Under the pieces are notes generated by a model. It made no database searches and was not told the origin of the DNA. It saw only the letters and a program-made list of their open reading frames with translations. Below are positions 7,062-21,597 of a stretch of DNA of 64,000 nt, one piece after another. The translations under genes were made by a program, and so were the position numbers. Source of the DNA: Eledone cirrhosa (lineage: Eukaryota); assembly GCA_964016885.1 (NCBI GenBank), contig OZ024747.1, positions 10,168,001 to 10,232,000 on the forward strand, written 5' to 3'. Within the stretch, counting starts at the first letter, position 1; each line of letters begins with the position of its first letter.

Positions 7062-7225
7062 TATTCAGGTCTGCTGCGGCTTAGCTCCACTGTTTCAACA
7101 GTTAGATCCGGGCTCGGGAGTCAACCGTTGGGGTCCTGAATTTTTTTCATTTTACCCACTTTATTACCCCAAGTATTGAGTACTCTGGTGAGTAATGGTC
7201 TAACTGGTTTTTACCGCCTCCCCTC
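7062..7225 (+). mobile_element. diverged copy of the short fold-back element at 8971-9138
   Basis: CCGTTGGGGTCCT...TTACCCACT...AAGTATTGAGTACTCTGGTG...ATGGTC...CTGGTT...TTACC aligns with 9037-9126. Confidence 0.7.
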
Positions 7226-7374
7226 TGATGTATATAAATACGATTTTAACACATATATGTTTACATGTGTTTATCTTTTTTTATATTTAATTATATTACA
7301 CGGCCCGAAAAAAAATTTTTCTTGAGCTATTTAATTGTAAGAGACTATATTGAGTTTCTAACTCAATATATACC

Positions 7375-7428
<54 letters not shown>

Positions 7429-7435
<7 letters not shown>

Positions 7436-7607
7436 TTTTATTATGGCAAAATAGAAATAGTGAGTCTTGTTACTCAGGAGTTTCACCTGTGATAAACAGG
7501 TAAAACTCCAGAGTAACAAGACTCACTATTTAGCCTTAATAAAATGAATATTAGAACTCTACTTCGATATTGAGTACTCCTTTCTGTCAGACATCAACCA
7601 CATGCGA
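7429..7607 (+). mobile_element. fold-back element: palindrome 7429-7551 with hammerhead-like 3' half, plus tail
   Basis: Arms of ~60 bp surround the hairpin CACCTGT-GATAA-ACAGGT. GAAAC-TCC[AT]GA-GTA is present (GAAAC intact in the minus-strand arm). It is followed by AATAAA and ACTCTAC..TATTGAGTACT, with (TA)n on both sides. Confidence 0.7.
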
Positions 7608-7624
7608 TATATATATATATATAC

Positions 7625-7800
7625 GTTATTCCGGGTTGAATCGGAGGTAACCACAGTAAGTAAGGTACTCAATACATAGCAGAGTATAACAGTTTTAATA
7701 TAGATGAGATTCTACAGGACTAGAACTGTTTCATTCATTAGAAATCATGATGATTTCTAATGAATGAAACAGTTCTAGTCCTGTAGAATCTCGTCTATAT
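7625..7800 (-). mobile_element. fold-back element with palindrome 7698-7800 (50-bp arms); hammerhead-like, same family as 17192-17283 and 21447-21597
   Basis: TGATGA-TTTCTAATGAAT-GAAAC-AGTTCTA-GTC-CTGTAGAA. The tail GGTAACC.CAGTAAGTAAGGT.CTCAATACATAG is shared with 21463-21500. Confidence 0.75.
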
Positions 7801-7806
7801 ATAAAT

Positions 7807-7881
<75 letters not shown>

Positions 7882-7895
7882 TATACATACACATA

Positions 7896-7971
7896 CAGGT
7901 GTCCCAAAAATGTATACACACTTCAACAGCATTCTAATAAAAGTGTGTTTACATTATTTCGGGACACCCTG
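7896..7971. mobile_element. 76-bp Tc1/mariner-type mini-MITE
   Basis: Imperfect TIRs CAGGTGTCCCAAAAATGTATACACACT / AGTGTGTTTACATTATTTCGGGACACCCTG, with TA on the left flank. Confidence 0.65.
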
Positions 7972-8203
7972 TGTGTATGTATATATGAATATGTATATAA
8001 ATATATACACACACAGATGTAGAATGTAGAAGGAGGAATGTGAAGAGGTGTGGAGGTATGAAGTAAATGAATTCCCTGTGTCTTTGCAGTCGAAGAACAC
8101 AATCAATATCAGAAATGGCTGCTGCCATACAAAGCAAAGCTAATTCTCTTTAGCCAACTGTGTTGAAAGGCTTGAGAAGAATTGTGGGAATTTATAGCAA
8201 AAT

Positions 8204-8374
8204 TGTGGTGGTGGTGGTGGTTGTGGTGTAGTGATGTTGATAGTGGTGGTGATATTGGTGCTGGTGGTGGTGGTGGTTGTGGTGTAGTGATGTTGATAGT
8301 GGTGGTGATATTGGTGCTGGTGGTGAAGTGATGGTGCTAGTGGTGTTGGTGATAGTAGTGGTGATGGTGGTGGG
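8204..8374. repeat. (GGT/GAT)n low-complexity tract with an internal duplication
   Basis: Read directly from the sequence. Confidence 0.85.
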
Positions 8375-18119: not shown

Positions 18120-18174
18120 TACTACTACCACCGCCATAACTGCGATCACTACTACTACTACAATTTCACCATTA

Positions 18175-18205
<31 letters not shown>

Positions 18206-18770
18206 CAATTACCACCACTTATTATTATTACCTCCTCCCCACCACCAACATCATTATCTTCACTATCACCTCCACTCCACCATCACTACTACCCACCACC
18301 ACCACCACCACCACTCTCCACCACTACCATCACCACTACTTACTCAAGATTAGGATTATTATATATTTGTTATTACTATGGAAATCCTTGTTGTTGTAAC
18401 GATCCTCATCCATTGACCTTGTTGTAAAGTAACCATTATCACCATTATCACCACCACCACCACCATCATCACCACCACCACCATCATCATCACCATCACC
18501 ACCACCATCATCACCACCACCATCATCACCACCATCATCATCACCACCATCACTATCACCACCACCATCACCACCACCACCACCACCACCATCACCACCA
18601 CCATCACCACCACCACCACCATCATCATCACCATCATCACCACCACCATCATCACCACCACCATCATCACCACCACCACCACCACCACCATCATCATCAT
18701 CACCACCATCACTATCACCATCATCACCACCATCATCATCACCACCACCACCACCATTATTATTACTACA
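18120..18770. repeat. (CAC/CAT/TAC)n trinucleotide low-complexity tract
   Basis: Read directly from the sequence. Confidence 0.95.
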
Positions 18771-19237
18771 TCTGTTAATTATTGTATTTACTGTAGAAAT
18801 ATTTCACAACATTGTAAAACAATAATTTTATTTCTATCAACTCCACAAATTATTGAACACCGTTCTTATTTTCTTGTTTTCATTCCATCTCCCTACTCTT
18901 ACTGAAAATTTGGGTTTCTTTCTTTTAAAGATAATTTTCCTTCGTGAAATTTAAAGCAAATTTTTACTGTTGGAGAATAAAGATAGAAAAATATGGCTTT
19001 AGTGAAATTTATAGCCCTCCTTTCCCGCTGTACTGTCTCCTTCCTTACTGTTTCCTGCCCCCTTCCTCAGGTTTTACTTCCCTTTTTTAATCTAATCTTA
19101 TAATCTACCTTAGAATACCTGCCATACCATATCTTAGAACTTAACTAAAATCTGCAGATGGGGTTTAGAAGAATTATTGAAGTTCTTCTACTTGGCTTCT
19201 CTTCTTAGATTTGGATATTTGGCGTATATATATATAT

Positions 19238-19351
19238 GCCAGATAGTCCTATACGAGCGAGACACGGTCACCCGACCAACCTTGCCTCAAGTGGGACAAC
19301 TCCCGTCTAACCCATGCTAGCGTGGAAGATAGACGTTAAATGATGATGATA
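19238..19351 (+). mobile_element. RTE-type 3' tail fragment
   Basis: Ends AACCCATGCTAGCGTGGAAGATAGACGTTAAATGATGATGAT and is a near-identical inverse of 20401-20514. Confidence 0.85.
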
Positions 19352-19428
19352 CACACACTATATATATATATATATATATAGTGTGTGTGTATCATCATCA
19401 TTTAACGTCTATATATATATAGTGTGTG

Positions 19429-20400
19429 TCATCATCATCATCATCATCACCGTTTTACGTCCGTTCTTCCACGCTAGCATGGGTTAGACGGGTTGTCTTG
19501 TTGTGGGCAGTGTCTGGTCGGCTGACCATGCCTTGCTCATACAGGAACTGATCTGGCTTGATTTCTACAGCTGGATGCCCTTCCTAACACCAACCTCATT
19601 TACAGTGAGTGCTGGGTGCTTTTTCGTGGCGCCTACACGTCCACTTTACAGTGTGGGCTGGGTGCTTTTTTGCCGTGGCACCTCCACGACCACCTTGCGG
19701 TGGGGGGAGTGGGGGCATATTGTTTATATGCTTCAGCATGTACCCATGGGAGGTCGGGTACCCTGTATTACTGCGTGACGCCAGAAGTCACGGTCGTGTG
19801 TCATCGCCTTTGAGAGGTGTAATTGGGTAAGGTCGGCTTTTATCACCTCATCCCAAGTCATCTTGGGTCTCCCCACTCCGCGGTTTCCATCAACTTCTAG
19901 TGCTCTGCACCTTTTTATGCAGCTGTCATCCTTCATACGCATCACATGTCCATACCAGCGTAATCGCCTCTCCTGCACGCAGCATTTGATTCCTCTTATG
20001 CTCAGTCTCTCTCTCAATTCCTTTATGCTTTGTCGTTCACGTATATTACTGTTACACATCCATCGGAGCATGCAGGCTTCGTTTCTCTCTAATCTACGTA
20101 AGTCTTCCACCTTCAGCGCCCAGGTCTCACTACCATGCAACATCGCTGTTCGGATACACGCATCATACAGTCTGCCTTTCATTCTGAGGGAGAAGCCTTT
20201 TGCAGCTAGCAGTGGTAGTAGTTCCCTAAACTTCTTCCATCCTGTTCTTACCCTAGTTATTGTACTTTCTGAGCACCCACCTCCGTTGCTAATTCGGTCA
20301 CCTAGGTAGCAGAAGCTGTCTACTGTTTCTACAGGGCCCTCCCAGAGATTGGTGGTACTTGTTTCCTGTGGCTGTTTGCTTGCTGTTTCAGCACAGCTGC
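19429..20400 (-). mobile_element. RTE LINE 3' portion (5'-truncated): ORF end, ~300-bp 3' UTR, (GAT)n tail
   Basis: VETVDSFCYLGDRIS...KGRLYDACIRTAMLHGSETWAL...ERNEACMLRWMC...RRLRWYGHVMRM...GRPKMTWDEVIKADL...DRDFWR. Confidence 0.93.
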
Positions 20401-20835
20401 TATCATCATCATTTAACGTCTATCTTCCACGCTAGCATGGGTTAGACGAGAGTTGTCCCACTTGAGGCAAGGTTGGTCGGGTGACCGTGTCTCGCTCGTA
20501 TAGGACTATCTGGCAGGTTTTCTACGGCTGGATGCCCTTCCTAACACCAACCACATTTACAGTGTGGAACTGGGAACTTTTTACTGTGTTACCTACACGG
20601 CCACATTACAGCGTGGACTGTGTTTTTTTTTGTCGTGACACCTACACAATCTCATTAGTTTGGACTGGATGTTGTGGTACCAACATAACTTTATAGGGAA
20701 AGGGTGGTGTTGGCGGGAGTGGGATAATGGAGTAGTTGGGGTGTGTGTTTGGTTTGGAGAGGCCTACTGACTCTAGGTTAACTTTGCACATAGGGAAGGC
20801 AGGTCTTCTGTATTACTGCATGGCGTGCAGAACTG
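20401..20835 (-). mobile_element. RTE-type 3' UTR and tail, second subfamily
   Basis: (CAT)n-TTAACGTC...GCTGGATGCCCTTCCTAACACCAACC, with ~48-bp internal subrepeats. Confidence 0.8.
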
Positions 20836-21127
20836 CTATAAAGATAGCTTATAAAATAGGGTGAAGACCCTTAAAAGATAGAAAAAAAAGTTGCCAACAA
20901 CCAGTATGAAGAATTGAACCCCATAGCTTCCAGATACCGGCTAAATGGACGTTAAATGATGATATATATATGTGTGTATCATCAGCATCATTAACATCCA
21001 TTTTTCCACCTTACATGGGTTAGACAGGTCGTCACATTATGAAACAAGTCAGGTGACCACATCTTGCTCATAAGGATCCATATGTCTGTGTGTATATATA
21101 TATATATTTATATATATATATATAAAT

Positions 21128-21352
21128 ACAGTCCACGCTGTAATGTGGCCGTGTAGGTAACACGGTAAAAAGCTCCCAGTCCACACTGTAAATGTGGTTG
21201 GTGTTAGGAAGGGCATCCAGCCATAGAAAACCTGCCAGACAGTCCTATGCGAGTGAGACACGGTCGCCCAACCAGTCTTGCCTCAAATGGGACAATTCCC
21301 GTCTAACCCATGCTAGCGTGGAAGATGGACGTTAAACGATGATGATGATGAT
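21128..21352 (+). mobile_element. RTE-type 3' tail, inverted relative to 20401-20623
   Basis: Direct reverse-complement similarity, ending GGACGTTAAACGATGATGATG. Confidence 0.85.
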
Positions 21353-21446
21353 ATATATATATATATGCATACTACATATATATTGGTATCCCAATGGCTG
21401 AAACTTGTAAAAATGTAATATATGTGTGTGTGTGTGTGTGTGTGTA

Positions 21447-21597
21447 TCCTGGGTGCAAACGGGGGTAACCTCAGTAAGTAAGGTTCTCAATACATAGTAG
21501 AGTAAATACAATGTTTAATATAGAAATGGCTTCTACAAGACTAGAACTATTTCGTTCAAAGGAAATCATCAGGCAAGCCCTGTAGAAGTCATTTATA
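21447..21597 (-). mobile_element. short element with hammerhead-like core (PLE pLTR or retrozyme-like)
   Basis: Minus strand: CTTCTACAGG-GCTTGC-CTGATGA-TTTCCTTTGAAC-GAAA-TAGTTCTAG-TC-TTGTAGAAG...ATTAAA...ACTCTACTATGTATTGAGAAC. Confidence 0.65.

Follow-up and report, generated by a model that had tools for sequence, protein, structure and literature searches.

This analysis concerns a short bipartite motif that recurs in a 64,000-nucleotide stretch of the Eledone cirrhosa genome (contig OZ024747.1 of assembly GCA_964016885.1, positions 10,168,001 to 10,232,000; hereafter the window), where it is carried by small insertions in (TA)n microsatellites. The carriers are the ends of Penelope-like elements (PLEs) of the Hydra clade, and the motif has a twin that lies outside the tail of these insertions; neither fact had been recognized in the earlier note, made from the sequence alone, that drew attention to the motif. 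We consider it likely that the motif is the first of two bulged hairpins (HP1 and HP2) of the Hydra-clade junction, and that each hairpin positions the reverse transcriptase (RT) to start copying 2–6 nt upstream of it, with one start for each target strand. We infer that the signal acts as sense RNA. According to the proposed mechanism, the GIY-YIG domain would cut both strands of the (TA)n target, and two protein molecules would be bound at HP1 and HP2 of the transcript; each protein would prime complementary DNA (cDNA) from one of the cut strands through a UA(U) match, copying 5'-wards. The cDNA begun before HP2 would include HP1 and the tail, the one begun before HP1 would include neither, and the head-to-head joining of these two truncated cDNAs would give rise to a palindrome. 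It follows from this two-start model that short copies should show one hairpin on one arm, and never HP2. The twin-hairpin pair would likely explain the one-sided tail of these insertions.

The earlier note had reported five motif sites in the window, located on the hammerhead-ribozyme strand and 30–50 nt before the (TA)n junction. A motif search of the window recovered all of them, at 7158–7183, 7556–7577 and 9067–9092 on the forward strand (the last had been placed one nucleotide off, at 9068) and at 7665–7685 and 21483–21503 on the reverse strand; they do lie on the hammerhead strand, approximately 30–47 nt before (TA)n. A partial site was also confirmed at 40467–40478 on the reverse strand, and by eye it is the 3' half of a version with a long loop, whose 5' arm is at 40520–40524. 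When up to two substitutions were allowed, the bipartite motif matched exactly five times in the window, at the five claimed sites, versus a mean of 0.04 and a maximum of one when 200-nt blocks were shuffled 100 times. No enrichment in the window was seen for the 10-mer TATTGAGTAC on its own, with one mismatch (7 observed versus 10.66 expected). The 3.0-Gb source genome contains 55,876 exact matches (27,975 and 27,901 on the two strands) and none of the reversed motif, and 83 of the first 100 genome matches listed carry the 9-nt spacer of the family referred to below as A. The enrichment is very large and strand-specific. The assertion that the carriers share no other alignable sequence stands for the junctions of families A, B and C, among which no blastn alignment was obtained at E <1 except for short motif matches; it does not hold for the complete elements, given that A and C1 encode homologous Hydra-clade proteins with 49% identity. 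The idea that all carriers belong to one recent family was rejected, since they are old and divergent: besides A and C1, other hairpin-bearing families show 42–70% protein identity.

Thirty genome loci bearing the motif sort into three families, A, B and C. A typical copy is formed by (TA)n, a short inverted arm, a direct arm with part of a type I hammerhead, the motif, a tail and again (TA)n; longer family-A copies extend upstream into an open reading frame (ORF). Intact family-A elements are found in tandem arrays with a period of 3.54 kb and an ORF of 717 residues, an intact C1 element was found in locus L273, and a search with a distant homologue revealed three further intact families, E, F and G. 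Each of these five families has a single ORF of 709–717 residues with YRDD, and all five ORFs, which are mutually 42–70% identical, show an RWR or RWK N-terminal motif, SDKT, the CxCx5C linker, CxxC and CxH; a pattern search detected the YIG motif in three families (A, C1 and G) but gave no match in E or F, and in A, the one family inspected for it, CCHH was absent by eye. The five families are assigned to the Hydra clade of C-terminal endonuclease-containing (EN+) PLEs by these ORF motifs of Craig et al. (2021, PMC8557442); the text of that study describes a single ORF of approx. 710 residues with RW[KR], DKT, CxCx5C, CxxC and CxH, a type I hammerhead, (TA)n targets, and tandem and inverted copies. 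Given these five ORFs, the window palindromes can be taken as the known PLE ends with an inverted arm and a tail, and the copies analysed here show the insertion architecture of EN+ PLEs, i.e., an inverted 5'-truncated copy and a one-sided tail. They differ from the clade as published in that text in the family-A unit of 3.54 kb and in the length of the tails, 58–88 nt in six families versus the 30–40 nt typical in the literature, although this last value is not a strict criterion.

Insertion into (TA)n is frequent, 162 of 204 family-A ends and 39 of 66 family-C ends being TA-flanked. A candidate hammerhead near the 3' end was recognized by eye from its core and stems, with a canonical core in C1 and a U3-A8 core variant, described for the Cercyon elements of Schistosoma, in the array junctions of family A (L061–L062); it was not called in Rfam scans of the window and 10 loci. 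No Pfam family covers the family-A ORF and a sequence search of the PDB gave no match; the predicted model of this protein (pLDDT 92) has the telomerase subunit TERT as its best fold match, and matches other RTs as well. Family B is old, with 80% identity between copies, and only a decayed remnant of the start of its ORF was found (L314), which by eye resembles a Hydra N-terminus and was negative by tblastn; a search for an intact family-B ORF gave three matches with no ORF by tblastn. In the full-length copies of family E (L072–L080), the hammerhead region at the 3' end differs from that at the 5' junction and runs into unrelated sequence, not into HP1; these copies are possibly chimeric.

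The order of components in the element is hammerhead, HP1, HP2 and ATG. HP1 can be described as RCTC-stem-loop-stem-UH-GAGY-ACU; in the literal motif ACTC forms a stem with GAGT and, on the far side of a two-base bulge, TAC is paired to GTA. The conserved core is broader than this literal motif, being GCTC...GAGCAC in most lineages. The tandem junctions of family A have a second hairpin of the G-C form, HP2, which starts 3 nt after the end of the tail; E, F and G have two hairpins each, and 6 of the 14 pattern matches for B show an HP2-like sequence beyond the tail. Because HP2 is located just outside the tail, short copies lack it; that of family A is absent from the window and was seen in the tandem arrays L061–L068. 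The descriptor was fixed before a set of 77 metagenomic Hydra loci was retrieved; 57 of them extend to the N-terminus, 51 include 130 nt or more of upstream sequence, and 43 remain after removal of redundancy. Two strict hairpins were detected in 22 of these 43 loci, one in 12 and none in nine (34 carriers), in contrast with 0/43 on the antisense strand, 0.005 loci with two hairpins in shuffles, and one hairpin in 3 of 382 ORF windows.

A relaxed search produced 65 hairpins in 36 of the 43 loci, and with positions fixed only by their distance from two anchors, Watson-Crick pairs were counted at inner pairs 1 to 4 in 61/65, 40/65, 35/59 and 20/38 cases, versus 35.9, 17.3, 15.0 and 10.1 in shuffles, which ignore kinship. 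The fifth inner pair showed no covariation, and the best value among 35 off-register control pairs was matched or exceeded in 84 of 5000 shuffles. In the bulge the first base is invariably U and the second is U, C or A; 57 of the 65 hairpins have G-C as their basal pair and two have U-A, and HP1 of families A–C has A-U. In a 28-protein tree, seven changes can be traced at the first inner pair of HP1, each of them affecting both sides. These results support the bulged form of the small ACTC/GAGT hairpin that had been among the options of the earlier note. In the published Hydra consensus sequences, those with the hairpin come from coral, sea cucumber and, in variant form, copepod: it is present once in Hydra-2_Amil and Hydra-2_Ajap, twice in Hydra-1_Ajap, and as variants in Hydra-1_Crog. 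The supplement of Craig et al., as text in which line breaks may hide matches, contains no match to TATTGAGTAC, and four of six matches to the G-C form lie in Hydra ends. A coding constraint was rejected as the cause of conservation, since the motif is outside the ORF and the spacers differ by 4 nt between families.

The relation between the hairpins and the ends of the copies can be followed in the family-A insertion of the window (8974–9141, forward strand), which is 95% identical to the natural tandem junction of an intact family-A element. A short inverted arm runs from 8974 and is followed by a direct arm, in which the hammerhead is represented by its 3' half (GAAAC at 9019), and then by a tail. 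HP1, at 9067–9094, shows the basal stem ACTC/GAGT, the inner stem, a UU bulge and the 3' ACU; it was read by eye in the minimum-energy fold of the full junction, and folded alone the sequence adopts another structure. The inner end, S1, is a TAT common to the target (9059–9061), 5 nt before HP1, and it is here that the inverted arm starts; the tail comprises the 80 nt from S1 to the outer end, S2 (9062–9141).

When the 3' ends from 171 loci of the same genome were mapped onto the natural junctions and filtered for a (TA)n flank, their distribution was bimodal, with most of the ends located 2–6 nt before one of the hairpins. In family A, 58 of 162 ends fall at S1 and 92 at S2, the latter being 3 nt before HP2. 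Ends within 10 nt 5' of a hairpin account for 158/162 in A, 27/27 in G, 7/7 in F, 6/7 in B and 19/26 in E, and across five families the length of the tail follows the spacing of the hairpins (r = 0.99), which ranges from 55 to 83 nt. The distance from the ribozyme was rejected as the ruler for the inner end, since the predicted cleavage site is 20–43 nt from S1, versus only 2–5 nt from S1 to HP1. Head-to-head pairs join one S1 with one S2 in 50 of 54 cases, and in loci that were not chosen by the motif of their own family, 22 of 23 such pairs carry the motif on one arm only. Of the 39 metagenomic loci in which both a junction and a 3' end are present, 12 continue as tandem copies and 10 are interrupted by the end of the contig; 13 of the remaining 17 ends lie 1–11 nt before a hairpin (12 of them firmly). 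The fixed distance between element ends and hairpin agrees with the RT-binding or priming site that the earlier note had offered as another option, and both options together are supported by the data.

These same ends bear on a different role for the motif, as a promoter or translation-control element of the 5' untranslated region, in which case the ends would reflect nearby TA microhomology to the target. HP2 starts 34–69 nt before the ORF start, TA is found directly before 56 of the 65 hairpins, and Penelope has an internal promoter, its 34-bp repeat scoring as promoter-like in the text of PMC2377424. However, only two of the eight TAT sites in the family-A junction are used and six are ignored, the length of the tail tracks hairpin spacing, and compensatory pairing is not expected for a double-stranded promoter motif; a promoter role is disfavoured, and this explanation as a whole is very improbable. 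It is also doubtful that the hairpins direct RNA processing, with cleavage or trimming of the transcript immediately 5' of each one and conventional target-primed reverse transcription from the resulting RNA 3' ends. This would predict the same genomic ends, and for the Poseidon PLE of Anolis known as PAc (Frangieh et al. 2024) the text of PMC11167929 reports RNA-seq read ends that coincide with the RT start sites; nevertheless, the same text describes that the anole protein in vitro starts internally regardless of the template 3' end, and two separately processed RNAs do not by themselves give one S1 and one S2 per insertion.

The remaining possibility is that the hairpins act as DNA, as single-stranded cDNA or as a cruciform, and that the GIY-YIG endonuclease binds them and cuts or resolves just 5' of each, the ends being cut sites. 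We regard this as unlikely, given that a cDNA that ends at S1 does not contain HP1, and one that ends at S2 does not contain HP2, unless it is first over-copied, and that in PAc the start sites were mapped directly to RT initiation, as described in the text of PMC11167929. On the other hand, the basal stem is conserved in sequence; according to PMC11167929, recognition of plasmid DNA by the endonuclease depended on the tail in the D. virilis element (Pyatkov 2004), and Craig et al., in the text of PMC8557442, ascribe the tail to EN-mediated resolution. Some insertions (L085, L091 and L097) have (TA)n directly before HP1 or HP2 on their 5' side, i.e., their 5' end is also at such a site; 5' ends can fall at start sites too, as a full round of copying on a circular or tandem template would give. 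Finally, on the sense strand G-U pairs outnumber A-C mismatches, and the active family C1 has a G-U pair, which argues against the DNA form.

Several points weigh against hairpins that set two RT starts. On the basis of genomic ends alone, an RT start looks the same as an endonuclease cut or a processed RNA end. Most family-A loci were selected through the motif, 38 of 204 family-A ends fall elsewhere when the TA filter is omitted, 6 of the 26 ends of family E form another inner mode, at −13, and one palindrome of the window, at 17.2 kb, has the motif on neither arm. Folded alone, the window hairpins are no more stable than shuffled sequences (z from −0.80 to +0.17), and the evidence for the strand is modest, with 11 G-U versus four A-C on the sense strand and basal pairs at a probability of at least 0.5 in 38/56 sense versus 28/56 antisense. 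On the 28-protein tree the shared changes are clear only for the first inner pair of HP1, those of the other pairs not exceeding the off-register controls. Hydra-1_Obim shows no hairpin by eye and Hydra-1_Amil only a partial one. Poseidon, in which according to the text of PMC11167929 RT starts inside a stem-loop without target homology, differs from the geometry proposed here.

An exception is family C1, which is young (its top copies are 99–100% identical) and yet lacks the stem of HP2. The prediction of a standard HP2 in family C failed: six matches were obtained, none of them before a Hydra ORF, and the true C1 junction is devoid of the stem. Nevertheless, its second end is sharp (16 of 39 TA-flanked ends). 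In the 100 listed of 136 pattern matches for C1, 99 of which are tandem junctions and one a chance match, only a short pyrimidine run and AGCACTC are found; the latter sits 6 nt after the second end, and another short hairpin is predicted there. From this family, either the stem is not strictly required or the protein mainly reads the 3' edge. Considering that the length of the loop is free and that the second site of C1 keeps only AGCACUC, the protein probably reads the basal stem and the unpaired AGY-ACU edge. C1 also forms arrays of short units of 142–261 bp (L317–L321) that keep the hammerhead or its 3' half, HP1 and the second start site, with almost no ORF; several of these retrozyme-like arrays end at the normal S1 and S2 sites in (TA)n, which suggests that the junction alone suffices in cis.

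PLEs are the closest retroelement relatives of telomerase. RT-binding RNAs that act in cis include hepadnavirus epsilon, the 3' untranslated region of R2, the 3' stem-loops of long and short interspersed elements, and the telomerase template-boundary element, all of them single signals for one start. As with epsilon, R2 and telomerase, a small structured RNA would place the RT at a fixed register in the Hydra elements; the difference is that here two hairpins in tandem would define two start positions within a single RNA, one for each of the opposite target strands. One PLE, PAc, has been reconstituted in vitro, as described in the text of PMC11167929, which reports that both target strands are cut, that RT starts at two internal sites flanking the tail, and that a dimer is predicted. 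Two start sites that flank the tail are a feature that PAc would share with the elements described here. In the text of PMC11167929, however, the sites of PAc are located within the ORF, in an AC-rich stem-loop that lacks homology to the target, and no cross-family motif is reported, whereas in the Hydra elements the proposed sites are non-coding, each located 5' of one copy of a repeated covarying hairpin, with a TA match to the target. The non-LTR (long terminal repeat) retrozymes, as described in the texts of PMC7229834 and bioRxiv 10.64898/2026.07.22.740005, are short hammerhead-bearing units related to PLEs, as are the C1 arrays; they are tandem non-coding monomers, each with a complete hammerhead, in contrast with the five window copies, which are single truncated ends.

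No mention of a hairpin signal was found in these two retrozyme texts. The word "hairpin" has no matches in the main text of Craig et al., where twin hairpins are not described, and the text of the supplement of PMC11167929 (figures being outside this scope) gave no matches. A full-text search, together with the available texts of PMC8557442, PMC11167929, PMC4209133, PMC7229834, PMC2377424 and bioRxiv 10.64898/2026.07.22.740005, did not reveal the hairpin pair, although Repbase entry notes or other related papers may mention it. A scan of 10 loci with Rfam 15, at E values up to 0.5, gave no match that covers the hairpins, and in the window the motif sites are overlapped only by weak Rfam matches far below the gathering score, among the 150 of 210 matches listed. 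The elements themselves and their insertion architecture are already known.

The hairpins make the template choice of PLEs, and the origin of their inverted arm and one-sided tail, directly testable. The hairpin rule serves to annotate the boundaries of Hydra elements, and it would allow the short palindromic repeats of this genome, in their tens of thousands, to be reclassified. If dual priming is true, the pair would act as a small cis signal for an insertion enzyme that uses an RNA template and creates both junctions on its own. A broader proposal, for which we see even chances, is that the whole Hydra clade uses twin hairpins as an RNA platform, on which two telomerase-like RT/endonuclease molecules are loaded per transcript and begin both cDNAs simultaneously, one from each strand of the cut (TA)n; the spacing would then set the tail, and a cis cassette of approx. 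190 nt would suffice for the mobilisation of any upstream RNA.

The other carriers of the window are of different ages. An old decayed copy related to family A is located at 7121–7224 on the forward strand (74% identity to the family-A junction), with its HP1 at 7158–7183. The family-B insertion (7426–7606, forward strand; 80% identity to L178) has an inverted arm, the 3' half of the hammerhead, HP1 at 7556–7577 and a tail, and that of family C1 (7619–7813, reverse strand; 97% identity to the corresponding junction in L273, the locus with the intact C1 element) has an inverted arm, the hammerhead, HP1 at 7665–7685 with G-U at inner pair 2, and a tail. These two insertions lie tail to tail in one (TA)n tract (7420–7815), and the stacking of different PLE families in one microsatellite is common among the loci examined. 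An older family-C copy at 21445–21573 on the reverse strand (82% identity to the C1 junction) keeps the hammerhead core and a mutated HP1 at 21483–21503. The palindrome-plus-tail element at 40396–41193, also on the reverse strand, has its arms at 40529–41193 and, by eye, a long-loop HP1 at 40467–40524 that starts approx. 4 nt after the inner end; no ORF was found for it in a search limited to the window. The family-C palindrome at 17191–17284, to which no strand is assigned, is the sole exception to the one-arm rule.

Other features of the window include a decayed C-terminal fragment of another Hydra-type ORF (1700–2512, reverse strand; 28–49% identity to families A–G), which abuts a 4.6-kb (TA)n array at 2472–7054. 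A palindrome in (TA)n at 6562–6740, with a tail of approx. 60 nt, lacks an RCTC/GAGY hairpin and has a related copy in L002; it may be a PLE from a different clade. The same 48-bp unit is repeated in two tandem arrays located 36 kb apart, at 12022–14140 and 50509–51006, and a fragment of eukaryotic small-subunit ribosomal RNA (41560–41849) directly follows a (TA)n run.

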